IMG/VR virus record: IMGVR_UViG_3300025435_000010
Span: 32,001 to 96,000 of that record
Source of the DNA: a virus
DNA length: 64,000 bases
Reading direction: 5' to 3' (one strand)
Shown here: positions 966 through 63,230 of the stretch, one piece after another
How positions within the stretch are numbered: the stretch's first letter is position 1
Layout of the letters: every line of letters begins with the position of its first letter
Program-made: the position numbers and the translations under genes
Notes under the pieces: model-generated
Seen by the model: only the letters and a program-made list of their open reading frames with translations
The model's database searches: none
What the model was told of the DNA's origin: nothing

Positions 966-2513
966 TTAGAAGTAAACAGACTGAGTAGCCGGTGTGAAGG
1001 CAGTACTGAGACCCTGGAGAACGATAACGTGATAATAAAGGTTTGCACCAAAGATATTATCAACGACACCGTAACGGGTGAGTAAGCCAACACGGGGACT
1101 GAAGTCGTTAGGACCGATAGTACGCTGAACCATAACAGGGATGTATGGGCAGTAGATGATACCGGTGTCGTAGAATTCAGGTCCCTTGTAACCGAGAAGC
1201 GCGTAGTCAAGGCGAGTTGAGCGAGTTGAGGCGGATGCACCACCGGTTGCACCGGGGAAACCACCTTTACCGCCGAAGTTACCTCCAGCGTTTGCTTCGA
1301 ACTGAGCCTCTGTACGTGTATCACGATAAACATTGAAGCGACCAGCTAAGGAGCCTACTTTTGCAACACCGACGGGCTGTGTATTGACAGAGCCTTGAAC
1401 GGGTACCCACTGGAATTCAGGGAGCATTTCAAGGATCGCGCAAACGCGAGGTGTACCAACAACGAAGTTGGCGGAACCACGGCGGTTACGGACGGCAATA
1501 CGATTAGCCTCAACGATGAGTCTCTGATAGAAGTCACGATTACGCTCAACGAGCCAGCGACCATCGGCTGAAGCAGGATTCCAGATGGAGTACCCAACGC
1601 CGTAACCGGCATTGAGAGCTGTCTGGATCATACGAATGATCATTTCACGGTCGATTTCGGCCTGAAGCTCATACGACATAGCGTTAGTGAGCTCAGTATC
1701 GATATCGATACCGTTCATGTTCTTAAGATCCTGTTCAAGTTCAACGGACCAGCGAGCTGCAAGACGGCGGGTACCGGCTTCAACTGCTGTCTTTTCAAAC
1801 GAAACGACGATCTGAGGAATATTGCTGGACAACTCAAACTGGCTGAGAAGTGCGGCAACACCCTGATCTTCAGGAACGAATGTAAAGGCTGAACCTGCGC
1901 CGAGACCGGAGAGAGCTGAAGAGCTAGCACCGGTGAAGGCTGTGTTGAGGTACTGATAACCTAATTCAGGGTTACCGGAGAGAGTGGATACACCAGTGGT
2001 GGCTCCACCGAGAGCGCCGCCAGGGTACTGTGTAGTACCGGAAGCGTCGAGACCGGTTGTCTGGTTCTGATAACCAAGAGCGGTAGGTTCGTACTTATAA
2101 CGGAGAGCAAAAGCAAGACCGACTGGACCACTCATAGGCTGAACGCCAACGATTTCGTTGGTGATCAACTCAGGGAATGTACGTCTGATCATCGGAATGA
2201 GGATCTTAGGAAGACGAGCATCACCAGCAGCATAAGCGGAGTCGTTCTGTGAAGGGAACTGGTTACCATAAGCACCAGCACCAGCAGCAGGACCACCGAA
2301 TACACCACCTGTACCACCTTCGGAGTTTGAGGCTTCGAAGCACCACTTCTCTTGGTTTTCAAGGAGGATGGCTGTGTTTAAACGGGTGTGATCATCTTCA
2401 ATCGGGCGGACGTTGTTGGAGGTGTAATCCAAAACTGGATTCCACTTTTCAAGCAATGTCTTTGCGCTTCTCTCATCGATGTAAGACTGTGAAGGACGGA
2501 TTGATTTTGACAT
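966..2513 (-). CDS. gp23: Major capsid protein (T4 gp23-like)
   Basis: LLEKW..TAILLENQ, ILIPMIRR..GVQPMSGPVGLAFALR, RRLAARWSVELEQDLK, YCPYIP, FSPRVGLLTRYG. Confidence 0.98.
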   Translation of the reverse strand: MSKSIRPSQSYIDERSAKTLLEKWNPVLDYTSNNVRPIEDDHTRLNTAILLENQEKWCFEASNSEGGTGGVFGGPAAGAGAYGNQFPSQNDSAYAAGDARLPKILIPMIRRTFPELITNEIVGVQPMSGPVGLAFALRYKYEPTALGYQNQTTGLDASGTTQYPGGALGGATTGVSTLSGNPELGYQYLNTAFTGASSSALSGLGAGSAFTFVPEDQGVAALLSQFELSSNIPQIVVSFEKTAVEAGTRRLAARWSVELEQDLKNMNGIDIDTELTNAMSYELQAEIDREMIIRMIQTALNAGYGVGYSIWNPASADGRWLVERNRDFYQRLIVEANRIAVRNRRGSANFVVGTPRVCAILEMLPEFQWVPVQGSVNTQPVGVAKVGSLAGRFNVYRDTRTEAQFEANAGGNFGGKGGFPGATGGASASTRSTRLDYALLGYKGPEFYDTGIIYCPYIPVMVQRTIGPNDFSPRVGLLTRYGVVDNIFGANLYYHVIVLQGLSTAFTPATQSVYF

Positions 2514-2609: not shown

Positions 2610-3488
2610 TTAGTACTTATGAAGCTCGTTCAAGTAAAGATTGAATGTACGATCTCCACTTGCAGGTGTCTCAACGGACTCCTCGATTACAGGACGGTCA
2701 ATTGCTGTTGCAATTGTTTCTTCCCTAGCTTCGGTAACAAGATTGTTGAACCGCTCTTCTTCGGATTTTTCAAAAAGACCGAGTGTATAATCAAAGTTTT
2801 CTGCGATGAATTTAGCGGACTTAGAACCAAGCATCTTTTTCATATACTTCTTCTTGTCCTCATCAAGAGAAGAAACCTTCTTCTCGAGAATTAAACTCGC
2901 ATTGACATTGTTTAGTTGCTCGGTCAATGTGGCAACCCGCTTATTGGCGGTTTCAAGCTGCTGTGCAGCTTCATCAATCTTTGTTTTACCGTCAATAACG
3001 GCATCACGAATACTCTCTTGTGCGAGAGCCATGTCAACTGAGAGCATGTTGCGCATATCGGTTAAGACGTTTGCAGCACGCTTGTTGTTAACAGCTTCTT
3101 GAATATCGGCTACGGGGAGCTTCTCTTCAAGATAAAGTTCAAGGTAATTGCTTACCTGGTCAATCATTTGATTTTTAAAATTAGCAGCTTCAGTTGTAAG
3201 AGCATTTTCATACTTCTCAATAACAACTCTAAGCTTATTAGCACGATCAGCATCAATAGCGGCTACAACCTTATTGAGCTTACCGACATGATCAGCATCA
3301 ACAGCCTCTAAGAGAGTCTCAAGTTTCTTAGCATAATCTTCATCCTGTTCGTTAAGAGCCTTTTCTACATGAAGTCTTACTTTAGCGTCAACTGAAGCTT
3401 CGTAAGCTGATTCAATTTCCTTAAGAACGTCTTCTGTGAGAATGTCCTTTGTGGCGGCCTTGAGGAGTTCGGAGATATTGTTTTGCAT
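2610..3488 (-). CDS. gp22: Prohead core scaffold protein (T4 gp22-like)
   Basis: Acidic coiled-coil 292 aa with VSNYLE motif, immediately upstream of gp23. Confidence 0.85.
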   Translation of the reverse strand: MQNNISELLKAATKDILTEDVLKEIESAYEASVDAKVRLHVEKALNEQDEDYAKKLETLLEAVDADHVGKLNKVVAAIDADRANKLRVVIEKYENALTTEAANFKNQMIDQVSNYLELYLEEKLPVADIQEAVNNKRAANVLTDMRNMLSVDMALAQESIRDAVIDGKTKIDEAAQQLETANKRVATLTEQLNNVNASLILEKKVSSLDEDKKKYMKKMLGSKSAKFIAENFDYTLGLFEKSEEERFNNLVTEAREETIATAIDRPVIEESVETPASGDRTFNLYLNELHKY

Positions 3489-4013: not shown

Positions 4014-4676
4014 TTAGAGTTTAGATAAAAACGTTAAAATCTGTTCCTTTAAAAAGCTAGCAACATCATGTTTAGGTAAGCCACGAATACTCTTTTCAAA
4101 AGATTCGTATACTTCTTCAAACTTTCCATCCATACCGAGGACATATTGTTTGGATTCAAGAATACCATTGACAAATGCCTTAGGGCAACTTGGATCAGCT
4201 ACACAGTCAACAGCAATAAGACGCATTTCATTGACGCGGTTAATACCATCAGATTGCTCTTCAAGTTGACCAAGGGCACGACTCGACATACCAACCTTAA
4301 CACCGTCATTAATAAGTGAGCGGACAATTTGACCAACAGGAGTGGAAAGAACAATTGATTCACCGATAATAATATTACCATCCTTGCGTAAAGAGGTTAC
4401 CATGTGACAGGCTCTTTCGAGGTCAACTTCAGCTGAAGCAGGGTGATTTAATTCACCTAAAGCACGCTTTGGAATAACCATTTCTTGAACATAACGGTTA
4501 ACCTCGCGCTCCATGTCACTCTCTGTATAGATTCTTTTGTTCTTATTAACCTCTTCGCACGCCATATAAGGGCCACGAATTTTCATTACTGATTGACCTT
4601 TGAGGTTTTTTTGTTCTTCGATATATTCGAATTGCTCTTCTGAAGCTGGTGTTTCAACTAGTAATCTAAGTGACAT
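4014..4676 (-). CDS. gp21: Prohead protease (T4 gp21-like)
   Basis: NKNKRIY, RALGELNHP, VGMSSRALG, DCVADPSCPKAFVNGILE. Confidence 0.96.
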   Translation of the reverse strand: MSLRLLVETPASEEQFEYIEEQKNLKGQSVMKIRGPYMACEEVNKNKRIYTESDMEREVNRYVQEMVIPKRALGELNHPASAEVDLERACHMVTSLRKDGNIIIGESIVLSTPVGQIVRSLINDGVKVGMSSRALGQLEEQSDGINRVNEMRLIAVDCVADPSCPKAFVNGILESKQYVLGMDGKFEEVYESFEKSIRGLPKHDVASFLKEQILTFLSKL

Positions 4677-30341: not shown

Positions 30342-31196
30342 TTATCGTCTTCTGTTAGGTGGTGTCCTATTAGTTAATGGATGAGATGGTAGTTTCATTT
30401 CTAATTCATCCTTTCTTGTTGGTGGTTTAACAGGTACACCTGTCTTTGTATGTGTAGCACCTTTTGTTACCGGTACAGCAGGGGTCATAACTTTAGGTGC
30501 CTGTTGTGTGGTATTAGTTGTTGATGCTGATTGTTGAGTAGCAGTAGTTTTTTGTACTTCAGGTGTTTTACCGGCTAAAAGATCTTGAACTACAGGGTCT
30601 TCTTTCTTACTATCCGCTTGTCGATAAAATAATGTAGAGTTTCTGCTAATATCTCTATCTGTAAGCCCTGGTACTGCTTTTTTGAGTGCCTTGTTGACAC
30701 CATTCATATCATTAGCAATGTCAATCTCACGCCTTTGATTTGCTGATAGCTTTGGATATTTTGTTTTAATAAATTCGCGGTACGGGTTTAAATATTTTTG
30801 TTTGAATTCATAGCTTTGACCGTATCTTCTAATAGCATTATCAATTCTTTCAGGTGTAGCAGCGATTGTCTTTCCTACACTTGCAACAGCTCCACCAATA
30901 TTCGTCACCGCACCACCAACTCTATTAGCTATAGCAGCACCTTGCGTACCTCCTAACGCGCCATAAACCTTCCCAGCACCTTGTATTGCTTTACCTGCTA
31001 GTTGTCCTAATTTACCTAATCCTTGAACTGCTCGACCTGGAGCCTGAGCAGCACCCTTTATAATACCTTTAGCTATTTTCTTACCGATGGGCTTTTTTGA
31101 AGCTGCATCAGATGCGCGCTTTGCAGCATTCATATAATCGGATAACGTACCTTCATTTAAAGCAAGTTTTGCTAAATTATTAAAATTATTATTCAT
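30342..31196 (-). CDS. Putative internal head protein (basic, Ala/Gly-rich)
   Basis: Start likely MNNNFNNLAKLALNE|G, resembling a prohead-protease-cleaved leader. Confidence 0.5.
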   Translation of the reverse strand: MNNNFNNLAKLALNEGTLSDYMNAAKRASDAASKKPIGKKIAKGIIKGAAQAPGRAVQGLGKLGQLAGKAIQGAGKVYGALGGTQGAAIANRVGGAVTNIGGAVASVGKTIAATPERIDNAIRRYGQSYEFKQKYLNPYREFIKTKYPKLSANQRREIDIANDMNGVNKALKKAVPGLTDRDISRNSTLFYRQADSKKEDPVVQDLLAGKTPEVQKTTATQQSASTTNTTQQAPKVMTPAVPVTKGATHTKTGVPVKPPTRKDELEMKLPSHPLTNRTPPNRRR

Positions 31197-31665: not shown

Positions 31666-32316
31666 ATGTCTGAATATACAAAAGAGTATAAACTTAAATT
31701 TGCTAACGGAAATCATCCTCATTCATCTGAAGAGAGACAAGCTATTATCGATAACGCTTCAAAAGCATATGAAGCCTATCTAGACGCTCTTGGCTTTGAT
31801 TGGCGTAACGATCCAAACAGTACCGGTACACCATTGAGAGTAGCTAAAGCATTCGTCAATGATCTTGCAAGTGGTTGTTATGATAACCCTCCGAAGATTA
31901 CATCATTTCCTAGTAATGGATATGATGGAATGGTGTTTCAAGGTGGTATCCCTGTAAAGTCACTCTGTAGCCATCATCACCTTGCTTTTACCGGTGTCGC
32001 ACACGTTGCTTATATACCCTCTGCTGAGGGTCGAGTAATCGGGCTATCGAAGCTTAATCGAATTGTAGAATTTTATGCCCGTCGTCCACAAATTCAGGAA
32101 GGTCTCACAGTGCAGATTCATGATGCTATTAATGGCGTATGTGAGTTGAATAAGGGTGTTGCTGTCATGGTTAGCGCTACGCATACCTGTGCATGTCTTC
32201 GTGGTGTAAAACACGATGGATGTGAAATGAAGACCTCAAAACTTAGTGGAGACTTCTTAGAGGATGGTGCTACAAGAGCTGAATTTTATAACTTTGTAGC
32301 TAATATGAAGAGCTAA
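31666..32316 (+). CDS. folE: GTP cyclohydrolase I FolE
   Basis: TPLRVAK..SLCSHH..GLSKLNRIV..RPQIQE..HTCACLRGV. Confidence 0.96.
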   Translation: MSEYTKEYKLKFANGNHPHSSEERQAIIDNASKAYEAYLDALGFDWRNDPNSTGTPLRVAKAFVNDLASGCYDNPPKITSFPSNGYDGMVFQGGIPVKSLCSHHHLAFTGVAHVAYIPSAEGRVIGLSKLNRIVEFYARRPQIQEGLTVQIHDAINGVCELNKGVAVMVSATHTCACLRGVKHDGCEMKTSKLSGDFLEDGATRAEFYNFVANMKS

Positions 32317-32723
32317 ACGCCTCTCTTAACATCTACCAAAGCGTTGAGCCGTCTAATAAACGGCTCTCCTATTAATACTTGCTGTTCATTCTCAGCACGA
32401 TCAGCAATACTAAATGTTACATCATTGTAACTTTTGTTGTTTAAAACAATATTAAGTACAACCGTTGGGCGGCTTTCGATGTTACCGCTACCAATATTAA
32501 TATCAATACTGCCAGTACGAGGGAGTGTAATTTTTTTATCATTGATGGTGGTAAAGGTTATGGTATCATCACCATTGTCATCAATATCTACACCGTGTAG
32601 TACATTGTAGGCTTCATTTCCACTATCTATTTTTGCGACAACAGATCCAATCCCATCTATTGTTATATATTCTGTAACACCGAGAATAGGTCTATTTTGT
32701 GTAAAATCTTTAAATGTTTTCAT
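32313..32723 (-). CDS. Retropepsin-like aspartic protease (RimK-associated type)
   Basis: ILGVTE..AKIDSG..RPTV..FSIADR..VLIG; leader MKTFKDF. Confidence 0.75.
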   Translation of the reverse strand: MKTFKDFTQNRPILGVTEYITIDGIGSVVAKIDSGNEAYNVLHGVDIDDNGDDTITFTTINDKKITLPRTGSIDINIGSGNIESRPTVVLNIVLNNKSYNDVTFSIADRAENEQQVLIGEPFIRRLNALVDVKRGV

Positions 32724-32727
32724 AAAA

Positions 32728-32976
32728 TTATTTTTTCTTCCAAGATATTCGTTTAGAACTTCTTTTAAGTCTCTTCCTACTATTACACATGCTCATTGTC
32801 GGTCTACAGGCTGGGTAACCTCTACGTTTTTCTCCTTTTTGTCTACCACACGCCTTACCTGTCTTACAGTCAACCCATCCTTTACCGTGATTACGTGTGA
32901 ACCATCCATGAAGACCTTGTTTTTTCTCTTTCTCAAATCCTTCTAGGATAAAATTAACTAAAGAGTCAAATTTCAT
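32728..32976 (-). CDS. Small basic Cys-containing phage protein
   Basis: GLHGWF..WVDCKTGKACGR..YPACRP; leader MKFDSLVNFILE|G. Confidence 0.65.
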   Translation of the reverse strand: MKFDSLVNFILEGFEKEKKQGLHGWFTRNHGKGWVDCKTGKACGRQKGEKRRGYPACRPTMSMCNSRKRLKRSSKRISWKKK

Positions 32977-33125
32977 TTTTTCTTCCAGATTTTACCTTGA
33001 CGGCACTTTACTACTGCTCCAGATTTATAAGCAGATGTCTTTTTACCATATACAGAATCAGCTCTGCGTAAGCAGCGATCGCGTTTAACTTTTTCTTCAG
33101 TTAAGAATTGCTTAAAGGTTAACAT
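32973..33125 (-). CDS. Small basic protein, 50 aa (below ORF-track cutoff)
   Basis: Manual translation MLTFKQFLTEEKVKRDRCLRRADSVYGKKTSAYKSGAVVKCRQGKIWKKK; overlaps both neighbours (ATGA overlap with the downstream gene). Confidence 0.75.
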   Translation of the reverse strand: MLTFKQFLTEEKVKRDRCLRRADSVYGKKTSAYKSGAVVKCRQGKIWKKK

Positions 33126-33427
33126 TTCCATCTCCTTCTTGCAGCGCATCCTCTTGTCTTTTTACCAGCGCATCCGCCAGCAGGAATCCAAGCAGAACTT
33201 CTAGCACAAAAGCTTTTTCTACGTTTTGCAGCCTTGGATCCCTTCTTCGCCTTCCCAGTGACTGGCGCTTTAAGATGAGAGCCTGTAGCGCGATTGTACT
33301 TAGCTCTACCCTTAGCTGTTAGACCACCCCCGCGACTAACAGGCAGTTTTTCACCGCGCTTAATAGATAAGCTAGGTCCACCTTCTTCAAGTACTTGTAT
33401 AAAACGTGATTCGAACAAACATTGCAT
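33119..33427 (-). CDS. Small basic phage protein (DUF6321-like)
   Basis: GGLTAKGRAKYNRATGSHLKAPV..RRKSFCARS..RRWKC; TAAATA 5 nt before ATG. Confidence 0.7.
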   Translation of the reverse strand: MQCLFESRFIQVLEEGGPSLSIKRGEKLPVSRGGGLTAKGRAKYNRATGSHLKAPVTGKAKKGSKAAKRRKSFCARSSAWIPAGGCAGKKTRGCAARRRWKC

Positions 33428-34746: not shown

Positions 34747-35856
34747 TTACATTCCTTGGTAATCTAAATGTCTGCCGCCCTGGTCGCCCATAACAGTGTT
34801 AATATAACTATGACCATTTTTTTCATTATCGTAGTTCATATTATCATTATCAAAATACCATTCAGCATCATTAATATTGCTAGCACCCTCTAGCTCTTCT
34901 TCATCTTCTTTATGTGCACCAAATTTTGCGCCCATAAAGTGAGGACTATTAACCTTAAACATTAAATTACCAGCCTTTATAACATACCCTTCAATATCAC
35001 CAAGCAGTCCTTCAGTCTTAAGAAGATTATTAACAATCTTGGTATATATTTCCTTTTGTATGGGTAATAATCTTTCTTGAATTTGAGCAGTAAGTGTACG
35101 TCTATGGCTTACAAGTGCATTTCTACCAGCACCGCCTGCTGTAATTTTTTCCTTAACTTGTTCTAATTCTTGTTCAATTTTTAAAATCTGATTGAATGCT
35201 TTTTGTGCCTTGAGAACCTCTGGTCTAAGATCAATTGAATGAAATAAATCAACATTTGGTAAAATAAATTTTACTTCTTTATCATTGATAGCAATTAATT
35301 TTTTTCTAATAGAGTCGACATTAACACCTTCTTCTGCTTGAATGCTAATGACAATAAATGTTGACCATGCACCGAGTTTTTCTTTATTATACTGAGCTAC
35401 AACAAAGCTTACTTTACCCGATGTTGGATCTGCCTCTAAAGCATTAGGTGAATAAAGCCATTCAAGCTGTACAGTGACATTATGTTTACCTATAATAGGT
35501 AATACAAGGTGCTTGATACGGTCAAAGCTATTTACAAACGCCTCTCTTGCAGGTAGATATTTTATGGCAGTTGCAAAGCCTTCAGGTTCATATACTTTAC
35601 CAGAATAGCTAGAACGTACAAAGAAGCCGTGTTCATCGTTACCCACTTTAAGAGCCATTCCATCAACTTTTTCTGTTACTGTTGAATTTTCAGGAGTAAT
35701 TTGACCTTTGTTTTGCTGTAAAAAGGTAATAAATTGCTTAAAATTTTCCGGTGACATCGAATAAAGTTCTGGTTTATTCTGTGAATAGAGATGCTGTATA
35801 CCAATACGATCACCTTCTTTAGTAGCTTCTGTAATAAATTGTTTAAACGTTATCAT
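34747..35856 (-). CDS. ATP-dependent ligase-superfamily nucleotidyltransferase (RNA ligase-like)
   Basis: Motif I TEKVDG, III QLEW, IIIa TFIV, IV IEGYVIK, V MFKV; leader MITFKQFITE|A. Confidence 0.65.
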   Translation of the reverse strand: MITFKQFITEATKEGDRIGIQHLYSQNKPELYSMSPENFKQFITFLQQNKGQITPENSTVTEKVDGMALKVGNDEHGFFVRSSYSGKVYEPEGFATAIKYLPAREAFVNSFDRIKHLVLPIIGKHNVTVQLEWLYSPNALEADPTSGKVSFVVAQYNKEKLGAWSTFIVISIQAEEGVNVDSIRKKLIAINDKEVKFILPNVDLFHSIDLRPEVLKAQKAFNQILKIEQELEQVKEKITAGGAGRNALVSHRRTLTAQIQERLLPIQKEIYTKIVNNLLKTEGLLGDIEGYVIKAGNLMFKVNSPHFMGAKFGAHKEDEEELEGASNINDAEWYFDNDNMNYDNEKNGHSYINTVMGDQGGRHLDYQGM

Positions 35857-36548
35857 ATAAATGTATGCCCGGTTGTAGCTTCAGCATCTTGAACAATTTC
35901 TTTTGCCTTTTCAGCTCCGTATATCCAAATAAGCTTTCGAACTATTGCCTGTACATTATTTAGATCATTAGCTGTTGCTTTCTTGTTAAAAATAGTTTTA
36001 GCAATAGTATCAGGATCTTTTGTAATAATTTGTTTTGTATTCCTATCTACTAAACCATTTATTGATAATGAATAACCCTTATTCTTTGCTACAGCTGAGA
36101 GAAGTATATTGCGGTCCTTACCTTTAAACGGTGCCGTTTCATTTGAAGCATAGAACCATTTTAGGTAATCAGGATCATCACTAAACATAAAATCAACCTG
36201 AACATGTTTTTTTGTAACATTACCTTGTTTATCCCAGATAGGTGAAAGAAAATGTACAGATATTCCCGACTTTTTTGTACCAATAGTATCTACACTATGT
36301 TGTTTCCAATAAGCTTGTAATTTATTTTCAAGTTCTGTTTTATTTACTGTTTTTGAATCAACTACAAGATCAATATCACCTGAATCAGCCGCTTTACCTG
36401 TTGAACCTAACATATTATCTTTAAGAGGCAGACCTGTAATTTCCTCGAGCTTGTGTACAGTAGACGCAACATCCTCACGTGTAATACGACATGTATTACT
36501 AAAAACATTACCCCCCTCTTTAAGAAAATATTCTTTAAATGTTAGCAT
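35853..36548 (-). CDS. Pol-beta-superfamily nucleotidyltransferase
   Basis: LGSTGK..SGDIDLVV (GS + DxD), third acidic residue in VQVDFM; leader MLTFKEYFLKE|G. Confidence 0.75.
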   Translation of the reverse strand: MLTFKEYFLKEGGNVFSNTCRITREDVASTVHKLEEITGLPLKDNMLGSTGKAADSGDIDLVVDSKTVNKTELENKLQAYWKQHSVDTIGTKKSGISVHFLSPIWDKQGNVTKKHVQVDFMFSDDPDYLKWFYASNETAPFKGKDRNILLSAVAKNKGYSLSINGLVDRNTKQIITKDPDTIAKTIFNKKATANDLNNVQAIVRKLIWIYGAEKAKEIVQDAEATTGHTFI

Positions 36549-37621: not shown

Positions 37622-37650
37622 ATTATAACCTCATAATTTAAATTTTGCAA
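37622..37650 (-). promoter_or_regulatory. sigma70-like promoter, likely leaderless
   Basis: TTGCAA-17-TATAAT-6 nt-GTG. Confidence 0.65.
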
Positions 37651-38056
37651 GCTCTTGTTTTGGAGCCTTACCAATCCTCACATTGCATATACCGTTATAA
37701 TAATCATCTCTTAGGAGTACATCCTCACCTAACTGTTCTTTAATTTCATAATAAGCTAACGCCCACTTTGAATCACAGGTACGTAAGATTTTAAAAATAA
37801 ATTTATCCTTTCCATACTTCTTGATATCTGCATTAAGTTCATTTGATGAGCTTGTATATGATTTCCAGTCAGACTCCTTATAATCAATTCGATTATTCTT
37901 TTTACCCTTTAATGGCTTACGCTTAATACGACTTGTACATTGCTTTTTACCAATATATTTTTTATTGCTTATTGTATTGATAATCAAATAAATGAACCCG
38001 AACGTATTCTCGCTAACATTTACACCATCATTTAAGATCCAATGTCCACTATCCAT
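37631..38056 (-). CDS. Short GIY-YIG nuclease (Seg-like)
   Basis: FGFIYLI..KYIGKK..ESDWKSYTSSS..YYE..YYN. Confidence 0.85.
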   Translation of the reverse strand: MDSGHWILNDGVNVSENTFGFIYLIINTISNKKYIGKKQCTSRIKRKPLKGKKNNRIDYKESDWKSYTSSSNELNADIKKYGKDKFIFKILRTCDSKWALAYYEIKEQLGEDVLLRDDYYNGICNVRIGKAPKQELAKFKL

Positions 38057-38067
38057 ATAGATAGTTA

Positions 38068-38316
38068 TTACATTCCCGTTGAATATATACCTCTACGCTG
38101 TACAGGTACTTTTCTTTTCTTCTTCCTACCTATCTTCTTACCACCTAAAATTGATGGAATTCGTGCATCACCTGGTGCATATGCTGCATCGTTTTGGGAG
38201 GGAAATTGATTTCCGTAATTACCTGAAGTAGCTGGACCAGTAACAGCACCTGTTCCCCCTACAACATTTGCGAGTTCTGTTAATAATTGATCTACAAGTT
38301 TATTAAAATTGCTCAT
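38068..38316 (-). CDS. Small protein with a capsid N-arm-like motif and a basic tail
   Basis: YGNQFPSQNDAAYAPGDARIPSIL is nearly identical to a gp23 segment; tail KKIGRKKKRK. Confidence 0.75.
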   Translation of the reverse strand: MSNFNKLVDQLLTELANVVGGTGAVTGPATSGNYGNQFPSQNDAAYAPGDARIPSILGGKKIGRKKKRKVPVQRRGIYSTGM

Positions 38317-38351
38317 TGATTTTTACTTACCTTATACTATATTTAAGTTTA

Positions 38352-38741
38352 ATGCTTGAAGAATATATAAAAGAACTTGAAGAAGATCTTAAGATTAATG
38401 AGTTAAATCTTAAAGACTATCAACTTCGCTTACCTGCTATTAAACATAAATGGACAGGTAGATGTATTCGTCTTAAATCCCAGATTAACTCTCTCAAGAA
38501 ACAAAGAGATAAAGTCAAATCTGATATAATGTCTGAAATTGACCATACAAGTAACGTAAAGCTAACACAGCCTATTATAGCCGCAACAGCAGACAAGCAT
38601 AGTCGAATTCAAGATATTAATTTAAAAATACAAGACGCGGAATTAATTGTTGAACTCTTAGAACGCTCAGAAAAAACTTTAAGCAGCTGTAGTTATGATA
38701 TAAGCAATATAATAAAGATAATGCAGCTTGAAACAACATGA
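38352..38741 (+). CDS. uvsY: Recombination mediator UvsY-like
   Basis: EEDLKINELNL..LPAIKHKW..SYDISNII; upstream of uvsW; start placed at ATG after TTGATT-16-TATATT (38316-38343). Confidence 0.7.
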   Translation: MLEEYIKELEEDLKINELNLKDYQLRLPAIKHKWTGRCIRLKSQINSLKKQRDKVKSDIMSEIDHTSNVKLTQPIIAATADKHSRIQDINLKIQDAELIVELLERSEKTLSSCSYDISNIIKIMQLETT

Positions 38742-57830: not shown

Positions 57831-58865
57831 GTGATACTGCCTCAGGAATATATAATTCAAAAATTTTACCAGTACGCAGGCTACCCTAAGTTTAAGAAGA
57901 TTACGAATACCTACGAGGCAGGTTGTCCAATTTGTCGTGAGGGTACATCGTGGTTAAAGAAAAGCAGATGCTATTATATTGTTGAGAAAAATGCAATTTG
58001 CTGTCATAACTGCGGTTGGTATGGTAAACCGCTAAAGTGGATTCAAGAAGTATCAAATCAAACGTACGATGAAATCTTAAAAGAAGTCAGGACTTACGAT
58101 ATTATACCGACTGATATCTCTCAAGAAGAAGAGTCGTTAGATATATCTAAAATAACGCATAAGCTTCCATTAGATTGCATAAATTTGTTCGATCAGCATC
58201 AAGTTGACTATCATAGGAACAATAGTATTGTTCAAAAAGCTCTTGAATTAATAAAGAACAGAAGGCTCAACACAGCAGTTAATAGACCAAATTCATTGTG
58301 GTTATCCTTGACGGACAGAGTACATAAAAACCGTTTAATTATTCCGTTTTACGATGAAAAAGGGAATATTATCTTTTATCAGTCTAGAACTATTATTAGC
58401 CAACCTAACGATAAATTACCTAAGTATCTCAGCAAAATTAATGGCGAAAAATCATTATTCAATCTTAATAAGATTGATACAGATTATGACTATATTTTTA
58501 TTTTTGAAGGTCCAATTGATGCCTTTTTCGTGCAAAACGGTACCGCAGTAGCCGGTATACAGGAGAACAGTAATAACACATTCTCTTCACTCCAACAGAC
58601 CCAGATTAATAATTTTAAACTATCTAAAATGATATGGGTCTTGGATAGTCAGTGGCTAGATAATGCAAGTAAAACTAAGACTCAACGGTTAATTAACGCA
58701 GGTGAGACAGTTTTTATATGGCCAGAAAAAATAGGTAAGTTATATAAAGATTTTAATGATGCGTGTATTGCAGCAAACATTGACGAAATATCACACAAAT
58801 TTATATTATCAAATTCGTATGAAGGGCTGAAAGCAAAACTACTGCTTTCTGAGATAAGATCTTAG
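57831..58865 (+). CDS. gp61: DNA primase (T4 gp61-like)
   Basis: CPIC..CHNCG zinc finger, RLIIPF..YQSR..KYLS, FEGPIDAFF, KDFND. Confidence 0.94.
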   Translation: MILPQEYIIQKFYQYAGYPKFKKITNTYEAGCPICREGTSWLKKSRCYYIVEKNAICCHNCGWYGKPLKWIQEVSNQTYDEILKEVRTYDIIPTDISQEEESLDISKITHKLPLDCINLFDQHQVDYHRNNSIVQKALELIKNRRLNTAVNRPNSLWLSLTDRVHKNRLIIPFYDEKGNIIFYQSRTIISQPNDKLPKYLSKINGEKSLFNLNKIDTDYDYIFIFEGPIDAFFVQNGTAVAGIQENSNNTFSSLQQTQINNFKLSKMIWVLDSQWLDNASKTKTQRLINAGETVFIWPEKIGKLYKDFNDACIAANIDEISHKFILSNSYEGLKAKLLLSEIRS

Positions 58866-59266
58866 TCGTTAGCTGAAGCTAAGTAGCCTTTAAGTGACTG
58901 ACTTAAACTACCGAGATCTGCAGCAAGGCGTGAAATCTTTTTCTTCTCACTTCTTGCAATGTTTTCAAACATTGTATCGCAAGGAGCAGAGTGGAGTTGA
59001 ATTTGCATTGAATTGCTATTTGTATCGTTTAAAAATATGATAAAATCATCGATTTTATTAATCCATTCATGTAGTGTGTTAATTTGCTCAACCTTTACAT
59101 GGTCAATACGCGTCTGCCTTTCAGCAGCTTTTACATCGAAATCAGAAGGTTTTGCTGTATCAAGACTTTGTGCCATAGCTTCTTGATCATTTGCGGGAGC
59201 AGGCTCAGGGACCGGAGCAACATCTGCTTCAAGAATATAATCAAACCTCGACTTAAAATAACTCAT
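58862..59266 (-). CDS. Hypothetical late protein
   Basis: TATAAATA (59272-59279) 5 nt before ATG; leader ..FDYILE|A. Confidence 0.65.
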   Translation of the reverse strand: MSYFKSRFDYILEADVAPVPEPAPANDQEAMAQSLDTAKPSDFDVKAAERQTRIDHVKVEQINTLHEWINKIDDFIIFLNDTNSNSMQIQLHSAPCDTMFENIARSEKKKISRLAADLGSLSQSLKGYLASAND

Positions 59267-61108: not shown

Positions 61109-61845
61109 GCGTAACCACCATATACACTATCATAATCTGTAAGTGTATAATCAAAAACAGATTTAGATGCAACATCAACACTGTAGCTATAAGGTTTATT
61201 GGCGCCTGATACACCAGGATTAAGCGTGTCATCATATACCTGTTGATTAACAGCTTCACCTGACAGACCTGGCTCAAACGACCATTCAAAACGCTTAGCC
61301 TTTATTAGCCAAACATAATGACCAGCGAGCGGATTAATCTGCGCGATATCCTGATCAAGACGTTCAGTTATCTCATAAAAATTACCATTTCGACCATTTG
61401 GACGATCACTACCATATTCTGAGAGCTGAAAAACATCTCCTGACTTTGGCTCGCGACTCGCACCGAATATGGTATAAAAACCGCTAATATGAATAAACGC
61501 TGTTACTTCATCTTCTGATAATAAACCATACTTACTAAGCATGAGAGCGTTTTCATTTAAATTGATCGCTACAGTAATTGGAAGAGGAGGTGCAAACGTT
61601 TGGGTTGGTTGTTCACCGTAAAGCATGTCTGCAGAAAGAACGCTAAATGTATTCACATAATATAGCGTCTGTTGACCGTAGAGATTTATTTGCTCCCTCC
61701 AATAATTGGAATATAAAACTCTTTCACTCTGATTATTATTCTTATCAGTAAAGCGAATACACGTATTATCGACAAAGTTTAAACTACTCGGATAGATCTG
61801 CGGAGTAGGATTACCTGTATAGAAGTCTTTTTCGTTGACGCTCAT
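61105..61845 (-). CDS. gp14: Neck/head closure protein (T4 gp14-like)
   Basis: EQINLYG..YY..LYGE..LSKYGL..PKSGD..FYEI..FEWS. Confidence 0.82.
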   Translation of the reverse strand: MSVNEKDFYTGNPTPQIYPSSLNFVDNTCIRFTDKNNNQSERVLYSNYWREQINLYGQQTLYYVNTFSVLSADMLYGEQPTQTFAPPLPITVAINLNENALMLSKYGLLSEDEVTAFIHISGFYTIFGASREPKSGDVFQLSEYGSDRPNGRNGNFYEITERLDQDIAQINPLAGHYVWLIKAKRFEWSFEPGLSGEAVNQQVYDDTLNPGVSGANKPYSYSVDVASKSVFDYTLTDYDSVYGGYA

Positions 61846-62192
61846 TATTTAGTTAATGTAAAGAATCCAGGTTCATGATGTGGTGCTAGATATATACCAG
61901 TATTACCGAGAGAGCCTTTAAGTTCTTTAAGATTAAATTTTGTACCCAATTGACGAGCTTTAGCTAAGGTAATTGTCTTTGTACCACTATTCATCGTCTT
62001 AAGGGTTTCAAACTCTTGTACAGCATTATTATCATGCTTACAGTACTCTGGGACAGTCTTACCACCAGTTGCAGAGTGTGAATTGACATCCGGAATAATG
62101 TCAGCCATATGACGATGCTGTCTAGCTTTACCGGTTTTTTTATTAAAATGAGGGTTAAACCTTTCGAAAATAAAGTCTTTAAAGCTCTTCAC
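61845..62192 (-). CDS. Putative internal head protein
   Basis: T4 capsid-targeting-like leader MKSFKDFIFE|R; TATAAATA (62198-62205) 5 nt before GTG. Confidence 0.65.
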   Translation of the reverse strand: MKSFKDFIFERFNPHFNKKTGKARQHRHMADIIPDVNSHSATGGKTVPEYCKHDNNAVQEFETLKTMNSGTKTITLAKARQLGTKFNLKELKGSLGNTGIYLAPHHEPGFFTLTK

Positions 62193-62261: not shown

Positions 62262-63230
62262 TTAGAGCTTACGGAAGTCGCGAACTGTACCCTTTGGAGC
62301 CTTATAACCATCCTTACCGGTTGCAAAGAGAACCTTACCAACGTTCTTAGAGACCTTTGAGTCAACAGGAACTGGCTTAGCAGGTACTGGTGTTGTATCA
62401 GCTGTATCAGGTACTCCATCGGCAGCACCGTAGAGATGTACTTTAGCATTCTTAGCGCCGAGACCTTCATCCTGACCATTGATCTCACCTTCGCCGATCT
62501 TACCGTCGACGTGATGTGTTGTCCAGGAATCCTTGACTTGATTGCTCTTAGCACCACCAAGTTCCCAAGGATGCTTGCCACCCTTAGCAACAGAACCGGA
62601 AATCTTGATTTCTTCAAGCTCGGTAGCTTCAGCGCTAAAACCGGCTGATTCTTCATCTTCACCCTCTTCACCTTCAAGCTCACCCTCTTCTTCACCGTGC
62701 TGTTCTTCATCAGAACCAAGTACGGCCATAAGAGCATCGTGAAGCTTACCAGCAAGTTCTTTACTAAGGGTAATTGTAACTTCATCACCTTCACCCTCAG
62801 CACCAGGAAGGTCAAGGGCTAAGGCATCATGCTGGTCAGCATCTTCAGGTGAGTGGATATTATCGGACATAACGTCCTCGAAGAGTTTATCAAAAGTAGA
62901 TTTTGTCATAAAATTATTTATAGGCTCTACTTCCATTTTTTCGGGGGCTAACGATAATTTTTCTACTCCCGTGAAAGTTGACTTGCCCTTAGCGTCCTTA
63001 GCTTCAAGGGGCTTAACGAGAGATTTTCCATTTTCATTGCTCATAGGTCCACGTTTATCAAAGGCCTTTGTTTTAAATCCCTTAGGTAAAACAACGTCAG
63101 ACGTCTTTTTACCTGCTCTGGCGAAAGTGTCTTTACCGATACCTTTAAGGTTGTTCTTCTTGGCTGCCTCAGTAAGTATTGTAGAGGCGTAGAATTCACC
63201 CATTTCAACGAGATTGCGTGCTTTATTCAT
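62262..63230 (-). CDS. Putative abundant prohead core/internal protein (basic N-terminal part, acidic middle)
   Basis: 322 aa; TATAAATA at 63242-63249; E/G-rich tract; own terminator. Confidence 0.65.
   Translation of the reverse strand: MNKARNLVEMGEFYASTILTEAAKKNNLKGIGKDTFARAGKKTSDVVLPKGFKTKAFDKRGPMSNENGKSLVKPLEAKDAKGKSTFTGVEKLSLAPEKMEVEPINNFMTKSTFDKLFEDVMSDNIHSPEDADQHDALALDLPGAEGEGDEVTITLSKELAGKLHDALMAVLGSDEEQHGEEEGELEGEEGEDEESAGFSAEATELEEIKISGSVAKGGKHPWELGGAKSNQVKDSWTTHHVDGKIGEGEINGQDEGLGAKNAKVHLYGAADGVPDTADTTPVPAKPVPVDSKVSKNVGKVLFATGKDGYKAPKGTVRDFRKL
62915..62922 (-). promoter_or_regulatory. Internal T4-type late promoter for an in-frame shorter isoform
   Basis: TATAAATA-5 nt-ATG (62909), in frame with 62262..63230. 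Confidence 0.6.

Follow-up and report, generated by a model that had tools for sequence, protein, structure and literature searches.

The 64,000-nucleotide window analysed here (positions 32,001 to 96,000 of the IMG/VR virus record IMGVR_UViG_3300025435_000010, taken as one strand) belongs to a distant T4-like phage, whose 131-kb record is estimated to be 60% complete. It contains a gene of 82 codons, hereafter the small open reading frame (small ORF), which on sequence comparison is a stand-alone copy of residues 61-117 of the phage's own major capsid protein, gp23, combined with a lysine-rich tract and a short leader of its own. This small late gene probably marks an overlooked head component. 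The chances appear evenly balanced that its product is a protease-processed, head-internal, DNA-binding peptide which docks by self-mimicry of the capsid arm. The parts of the small ORF and their counterparts in gp23 are the following.

38068..38316, minus strand: small ORF, 82 amino acids, a free-standing gp23 mobile N-terminal element with a Lys-rich insert (BLASTP, homologues, codon comparison).
38275..38316, minus strand: leader, residues 1-14, ending in LLTE, with a predicted prohead-protease site after Glu14 (predicted helix and likeness to T4 IPI, IPII and IPIII; cleavage putative).
38146..38274, minus strand: residues 15-57, copy of the mature gp23 N-terminus (N-fist equivalent), including the 24-residue motif (alignment, co-variation).
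38146-38217, minus strand: the 24-residue motif, small-ORF residues 34-57, compared with gp23 residues 82-105.
38110..38145, minus strand: residues 58-69, a Gly/Lys/Arg-rich insert that is not in gp23 (alignment).
38071..38109, minus strand: residues 70-82, an arm-like end, VPVQRR..., similar to gp23 IPMIRRTFPE (alignment with gp23 and relatives).
966..2513, minus strand: gp23 major capsid protein, 515 amino acids (match to T4 gp23 structures, E = 1.6e-29).
2163..2333, minus strand: gp23 residues 61-117, the element copied by the small ORF, corresponding to about residues 66-108 of T4 gp23 (alignment, HMMER to T4 gp23).
2199-2270, minus strand: gp23 residues 82-105, counterpart of the 24-residue motif (20 of 24 residues identical).

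Over the 24-residue motif the two proteins are identical at 20 residues, and 47 of the 72 nucleotides agree. Different codons are used at 16 of the 20 identical residues, whereas independent sampling from the codon usage of the genome would predict about 11, so that the synonymous sites look fully randomised. The counts of 20 and 16 were given in the original prediction, an earlier reading of this stretch, and proved exact on recount. That reading was also right about the 24 residues themselves, but the true span of similarity is longer, from the Glu through the start of the arm. The local alignment covers 44 residues, 30 of them identical, starting at the Glu of LLTE in the small ORF and of CFE in gp23 (BLASTP E = 7e-11 in a single comparison of the two proteins). 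Past the 12-residue insert the similarity resumes, with VPVQRR and the seven residues after it resembling gp23 IPMIRRTFPE, and the widest span of similarity in gp23 comprises residues 58-117. Both copies lie, as had been noted, beyond a Gly-rich stretch and a likely protease site: the stretch precedes the motif in each protein, and Glu14 (LLTE, small ORF) and Glu60 (CFE, gp23) both fit an LxE-type site. The basic KKIGRKKKRK sequence, formerly taken for the tail of the protein, is present, but it forms an insert inside the gp23-like region, and it is the arm-like segment that ends the protein. Four relatives free of the insert (L130, L135, L142 and L150) read through ...RKFPELIT or ...RKLPELI like gp23, and then carry a C-terminal poly-Lys.

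The HK97-fold body of a capsid protein (P, A and I domains) is absent from the 82 residues of the small ORF, whose AlphaFold2 (AF2) model is one helix and otherwise unstructured. No third copy of the motif was found in the phage's own 131-kb record, which holds those of the small ORF and gp23 only, and no family for the small ORF was found in PHROGs or Pfam. The window gp23 is about 32% identical to the major capsid proteins of cyanomyophages.

The relation between the two genes was followed in 19 virus records holding both the small ORF and gp23. In 12 of these genomes the motif is of the GNQFPSQND class in the one gene and the other. In G031 and G049 the two genes share an unrelated class (...GGSLGTFQTS...NP...GTPG...), a third class is common to both genes of G035, a rare APNDTRLPK variant occurs in both genes of G042, and the match in G037 is weak. 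When the small proteins are aligned to gp23 N-regions, Smith-Waterman scores are 100-160 if the two belong to one class and 30-70 if they do not. In a permutation test in which each clade had a single representative, the observed diagonal sum was attained by 65 of 5040 permutations. Across these records the variable segment of the small protein tracks the gp23 of its own clade, in three distinct motif classes. In the 14 cognate pairs of small ORF and gp23 the nucleotide identity is 50-68%, which excludes recent gene conversion, and half to three quarters of the identical residues have different codons. In G042 (loci L146 and L200) the APNDT codons are identical between the genes at 14 of 15 bases and the flanks are diverged; this patch may be a trace of short-patch gene conversion, and such conversion may occur rarely. 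A finer co-variation inside the GNQFPSQND clade, the replacement of Gly by Asn in APGD, was dropped, the pairs being too few (Asn in three of nine gp23s and in two of nine small proteins, both of the latter paired with an Asn-bearing gp23), and an N-glycosylation sequon in the motif was rejected, as N-D-S is not kept among the small proteins.

Comparisons over the 24 motif codons give a proportion of synonymous differences (pS) of 0.73 within the small ORFs, 0.62 within the gp23 genes and 0.92 across the two sets, the respective proportions of nonsynonymous differences (pN) are 0.16, 0.08 and 0.17, and pN/pS over the motif is 0.13-0.22. Because this ratio is low within the small-ORF family, the copied segment is judged to be under purifying selection. 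The earlier view that selection acts on the peptide, and that the pair is not a recent duplication, is borne out by pS of 0.73-0.92 against pN of 0.08-0.17 and by the divergence of the cognate pairs.

The small ORF belongs to a family with a fixed genomic position. A word-indexed search returned 44 homologues of 63-96 amino acids, and a profile search of 1.84 billion representative proteins gave 134 cluster representatives at E <= 1e-3, mostly of 65-100 amino acids; blastn found no match to the locus. In 35 of the 36 loci compared the gene order is uvsW, uvsY, then the divergent small ORF, a 141-residue GIY-YIG protein and further shared ORFs, and in the exception (L025) the GIY-YIG gene is undetectable. 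The immediate neighbours in the window are as follows.

38352..38741, plus strand: uvsY homologue, divergent neighbour of the small ORF (synteny).
37631..38056, minus strand: GIY-YIG protein, 141 amino acids, directly downstream of the small ORF (synteny).

The first set of loci was retrieved with the pattern GNQFPSQ, so that the conservation of the motif in it is partly by construction. This ascertainment is corrected by a second, unbiased set of 80 loci anchored on the neighbouring GIY-YIG gene (54-87% identity). A family-like ORF lies directly upstream of the GIY-YIG gene in 59 of the 80 loci by strict automated criteria; among the 21 rejected loci, 17 are members by eye, without a run of three basic residues, and four (L187, L188, L191 and L193) have a different ORF in this position. 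GNQFPSQND is present in only 9 to 12 of the 80 loci (9 with the stricter script, 12 with the first one), and therefore it is the architecture, not the motif, that is conserved. This architecture consists of the leader, the Glu, a start of the type N-x-A/S-G-G...F-G, a variable stretch, an anchor of the type Y-A-P-G-D-A-R-x-P, the Lys tract and the RR segment; in some relatives the Lys tract is C-terminal rather than an internal insert. In L025 and P0050 the small ORF is extended C-terminally by about 120 residues, directly past an NLVE site. The GIY-YIG protein (37631-38056), labelled in PHROGs as homing endonuclease or 'NAD synthetase', occupies the same position at 54-91% identity in 35 of the 36 small-ORF loci, and from this conserved position it is a core gene of these phages and no mobile homing endonuclease. 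Among cultured phages the best match, at 50.8%, is in the Methylophilales phage Melnitz.

The leader of the small ORF is covered by a helix predicted by AF2 at residues 3-19, the remainder of the model being of low confidence. Its pattern, F-x-x-h...L-x-E, is common to T4 IPII, IPIII and IPI and to about ten other ORFs of the window, as judged by pattern and by eye, unscored; in the T4 record IPII and IPIII start with MKTYQEFIAE and IPI with MKTFKEF.... The consensus of the prohead-protease site is L/I-x-E. LLTE at residues 11-14 fits such a predicted site, and the consensus of the family alignment A2 has L-E there. In PMC7411985 capsid-targeting leaders are described as attaching to the prohead core and as being cut off by gp21. 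The protease of the phage, and a candidate promoter of the small ORF, are located as follows.

4014..4676, minus strand: gp21-type prohead maturation protease, predicted to cut the small protein and gp23 (phrog_207, E = 1.2e-52).
38340..38345, minus strand: TAAATA box, late-promoter-like, 24-29 nucleotides upstream of the ATG, in the 35-nucleotide gap to the uvsY start (motif comparison).

Of 55 syntenic loci, 50 have the sequence TAA[AG]TA no more than 50 nucleotides upstream of the start; among background windows the frequency is 6.9%. The related box ATAA[AG]TA stands 12-20 nucleotides before head, tail and leader-bearing genes of the window and precedes none of uvsY, uvsW, gp55, gp47, gp46 and the polymerase gene. 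Because of its placement upstream of head, tail and leader-bearing genes, ATAA[AG]TA is probably the late promoter of the phage. It is rarer than expected in the window: about 35 occurrences would be expected per strand, and there are 9 on the plus and 23 on the minus strand. The published late promoters are TATAAATA for T4-type phages and NATAAATA for cyanophages (PMC2984593).

In fusions represented by 24 longer relatives, other domains follow or precede the module. In the five proteins in which it is internal and leaderless (P0076, P0089, P0118, P0154 and P0167), I/V/L/M-x-E precedes the start of the module by 1-3 residues in every case, which suggests that a protease-made N-terminus matters, as in gp23. 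A DUF5661-like domain (...EKEHT...DHL...YY...) is fused before or after the module in P0076, P0111, P0118, P0120, P0143, P0147, P0154, P0158, P0165 and P0167; of the four scanned against Pfam, P0118, P0120 and P0165 are above the cut-off and P0143 below it, and the other six were assigned by eye. This domain may be a co-packaged head protein, and it was not found in the phage's own record.

About ten ORFs of the window, all on the minus strand, carry a leader of the T4 capsid-targeting type ending in h-x-E, among them 30342-31196, 32313-32723, 32728-32976, 33119-33427, 34747-35856, 35853-36548, 58862-59266, 61845-62192 and 62262-62909. They include ligase-like, Pol-beta-type nucleotidyltransferase-like, DUF6321 and Zn_protease-like proteins. 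The first eight residues of the Zn_protease-like ORF match T4 IPI at seven, and the leader of ORF 33119-33427 is nearly identical to that of small-ORF orthologues of sister clades. The shared leaders suggest that these ORFs represent a large set of packaged, injected proteins. In the T4 record (L214 7946-8380, L215 967-1131) the capsid-targeting leader resembles the end of the gp23 propeptide (...AFGSFLTE), and the targeting leader may therefore imitate the propeptide end of the capsid protein.

The segment copied by the small ORF has a known role in T4. According to PMC9546572, residues 66-105 of gp23*, the cleaved form of gp23, are disordered and interior-facing in the unexpanded head, where they probably touch the scaffolding core, and on expansion they move to the outer surface to form the N-fist and N-arm. 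The N-fist, residues 66-91, is described as contacting four subunits in two capsomers (PMC9958956, PMC7136217). Since the aligned T4 segment, about residues 66-108, moves on expansion, what the small ORF reproduces is the single mobile part of the shell protein. The copied segment aligns with the N-fist and N-arm of gp23*, an element that begins at the protease-made N-terminus and ends at a conserved RR...P; unlike gp23*, the small ORF has no HK97-fold body but contains the Lys insert, and the element before the arm is about 45 residues long in its clade versus 25 in T4.

The mechanism proposed for the small protein is the following. Produced late, it would be carried into the assembling prohead via its leader, and the gp21-type protease would trim it after Glu14, leaving some 68 residues with a start that imitates mature gp23. 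The arm copy would make the contacts of the gp23 arm, whether these are with adjacent subunits of the shell or with the scaffolding core (the scaffold protein is encoded at 2610-3488), and the Lys tract would hold on to the acidic core at first and to the packaged DNA later. In this model the mature peptide would lie inside the head, docked to the capsid and bound to DNA. We infer its packaging and cleavage, its binding to DNA and the partner to which it docks. The lysines of T4 internal proteins are reported to contact DNA (PMC3012670). Three roles were proposed in the original prediction, namely an extra N-arm tethering DNA, a decoy for an immune sensor and a recognition tag, and the first of them would be most in keeping with a leader that ends in a predicted protease site, a late-type box and a Lys tract.

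The same combination was found in two cultured phages. The product of T4 gene 61.1 (54 amino acids, 'hypothetical protein', NC_000866 18966-19130) is identical to T4 gp23 57-93 at 17 of 37 residues, spanning the cleavage site (BLASTP E = 1e-9). Like the small ORF, it has a capsid-targeting-like leader ending in Glu, a copy of the mature N-terminus of its own gp23 and a Lys run; unlike the small ORF, it is encoded beside the primase gene and not uvsY, is without the arm-like RR segment and has an acidic end. Syn9 gp190, a protein of 174 amino acids named 'major head protein' in NC_008296, matches Syn9 gp23 across the site at 17 of 27 residues (E = 6e-12). It also starts with a copy of the mature N-terminus of its own gp23, followed by a basic stretch, but differs in having a C-terminal extension of 120 residues and in being encoded two genes before primase. 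Defined by three elements, namely a Glu-terminated leader, a replica of the N-terminus of the phage's own mature gp23 and a tract rich in Lys, the design is shared by the window ORF, T4 gp61.1 and Syn9 gp190, and is thus present in two of the five cultured T4-like phages examined. Queries with the gp23 N-region of each phage revealed no second copy of the arm in S-PM2, Melnitz and HTVC008M, although these arms are short and a copy could escape. The term free-standing capsid N-arm copies (T4 61.1 design) for these proteins is coined here and does not refer to a published family. Because the design recurs in coliphage T4, cyanophage Syn9 and an uncultured lake-type clade, and tracks the respective gp23, it appears to be old and selected. 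That T4-like phages generally carry a protease-released free copy of the capsid arm, which inserts in trans into the lattice or the core-shell interface and holds DNA by its Lys tract, is a wider proposal that we advance tentatively and with considerable doubt; this minor head component would use self-mimicry as its docking tag.

Several known head proteins share part of this design. T4 IPI, IPII and IPIII, which enter the head together with DNA and are substrates of gp21 (PMC7411985, PMC3012670), resemble the small ORF in having a short leader of the same type ending in Glu, in being basic and in the presence of a gp21-type protease in the genome, but they contain no gp23 copy and their sequence likeness is confined to the leader. 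The DarA-Hdf proteins of phage P1 are a functional analogue of the proposed mechanism, being protease-processed internal proteins on the inner capsid surface (55 pairs) which bind DNA and affect head size (PMC12810830); they are unrelated in sequence, large and folded, and have no capsid-arm copy. CpmB of SaPI1 is, like the proposed small protein, a small mimic of a capsid-assembly contact segment that competes on the capsid protein (PMC12810830), but it is encoded by a phage parasite, its mimicry is of the scaffold and not of the capsid arm, and it is removed once maturation is over. T4 gp67 and gp68 were rejected as equivalents: gp67 is acidic and gp68 basic-tailed, and neither resembles the gp23 arm.

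A number of observations weigh against a head-internal, capsid-docked peptide. In T4 all N-fist sites are occupied by the arm of gp23 itself, which leaves a free arm without an evident docking site. A gp24-type paralogue that would leave vacant sites was not found in the phage's own record (G000) or in G005, G013, G016 and G017, a set including records estimated to be 88% and 91% complete, although a distant relation could escape this search, and the relation of gp23 to gp24 is distant in T4. Since such a vertex paralogue is undetected, the pentons may be built of gp23, as has reportedly been proposed for cyanomyophages. The orthologues were originally expected to show the two motifs changing together; orthologues do carry the motif and it changes along with that of gp23 between clades, but in 5 of the 19 genomes (G013, G016, G032, G033 and G034) the motif of the small ORF has drifted alone, with that of gp23 intact, and likeness to gp23 is retained only in the first dozen residues past the Glu. 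An exact match is therefore dispensable in some lineages. The locus lies among replication and recombination genes, outside the head module, and the box of the small ORF, TTAAATA, is one base off the ATAA[AG]TA of the head genes. A second protease site past RR in the fusion proteins is a weakened candidate, since h-x-E there may be the homologue of gp23 RRTFPE. The small-ORF family was found in no cultured phage by tblastn of the window protein and two distant members against 50,697 phage records. The profiles A1 and A2 were without match in T4, Syn9, S-PM2, HTVC008M and Melnitz, an empty result which by the caveat of the method is uninformative, and in hhalign comparisons with the family alignment A2 the probabilities are 12.9% for T4 gp61.1 and 4.8% for Syn9 gp190, values that do not demonstrate common descent for these short, mostly disordered proteins. 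Structural modelling is neutral: the AF2 model of gp23 from a 31-row alignment has a mean predicted local distance difference test score of 35.6 and is unusable for mapping the arm site, and a complex prediction of two copies of gp23 119-515 with small-protein residues 15-82 (separate alignments, without controls) scored 0.00, which is evidence neither way.

Among the other explanations, the small protein may be a soluble, unpackaged assembly regulator, whose free arm would bind gp23 or the scaffold, compete with the gp23 arm, and prevent aberrant polymerisation or tune head size. Self-mimicry and co-variation fit competition for one site, the substitutions A66D, A94V and G97S in the homologous segment of T4 gp23 alter head length (PMC9546572), and there are precedents in SaPI1 CpmB, a competing scaffold-like protein, and, as proposed, in P1 DarA (PMC12810830). 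This explanation is nevertheless unlikely, as it accounts neither for the Lys tract and the protease-site leader, the latter common to about ten other ORFs, nor for the internal modules of the fusion proteins that start right past h-x-E.

It is quite improbable that the small protein acts as a decoy for a host immune sensor of the capsid N-terminal region, absorbing the sensor before gp23 builds up. Capsid-triggered defences exist, and the Gol segment of gp23 sensed by Lit is described as its most conserved part (PMC3014915). Tracking its own gp23 is what a decoy would need, but a late-type box would time the decoy together with gp23 and not earlier, and it would leave leader, protease site and Lys tract without a function. 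With the Gol coordinates that we presume for gp23, the small ORF ends at RR...P, before ...GVQPM..., that is, the copy ends where the most conserved stretch of gp23 begins, and no more than the opening residues of a Gol-like region are included.

A recognition tag shared with gp23 would make the small protein an extra substrate or a titrator of one phage factor, for instance a chaperone, a modifying enzyme or the prohead protease (exosite or timing). Of the shared elements, the most universal is indeed the dozen residues right past the Glu (N-x-A/S-G-G...F-G), which are kept even where the later motif drifted, and in other leader-bearing ORFs a Gly also follows the Glu directly. The co-varying part, however, lies 20-45 residues past the site and is very different between clades, whereas the protease and the capsid body are conserved (gp23 across clades is 66-93% identical to that of the window), and the arm-like end and the Lys tract are left unexplained, which makes a shared tag, too, a poor prospect. 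Concerted evolution without shared function, in which short-patch conversion from gene 23 maintains the likeness and the leader and Lys tract alone have a real function, is most improbable, since the APNDT patch of G042 with its differing flanking codons and the drift tolerated in five lineages are set against 14 cognate pairs that are diverged in nucleotides and codons, and against a pN/pS that points to purifying selection on the copied segment itself.

T4 head assembly is among the best-studied assembly pathways. No published description of a free-standing capsid-arm protein was found in literature on the motif, the N-fist, gp61.1 and capsid-targeting internal proteins, and the T4 head reviews consulted (PMC9958956, PMC3012670, PMC9546572) make no mention of a capsid arm that exists as a separate protein. 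The design defined here gives annotators a naming rule for a widespread 'hypothetical protein', and because gene 61.1 has the same design, the wider proposal of a protease-released free arm copy in T4-like phages is directly testable in T4. If the peptide is a head component, it would represent a new mode of cargo loading, in which docking is achieved by imitating the shell protein's own arm, and it may connect the DNA with the shell, or regulate either expansion or the size of the head.

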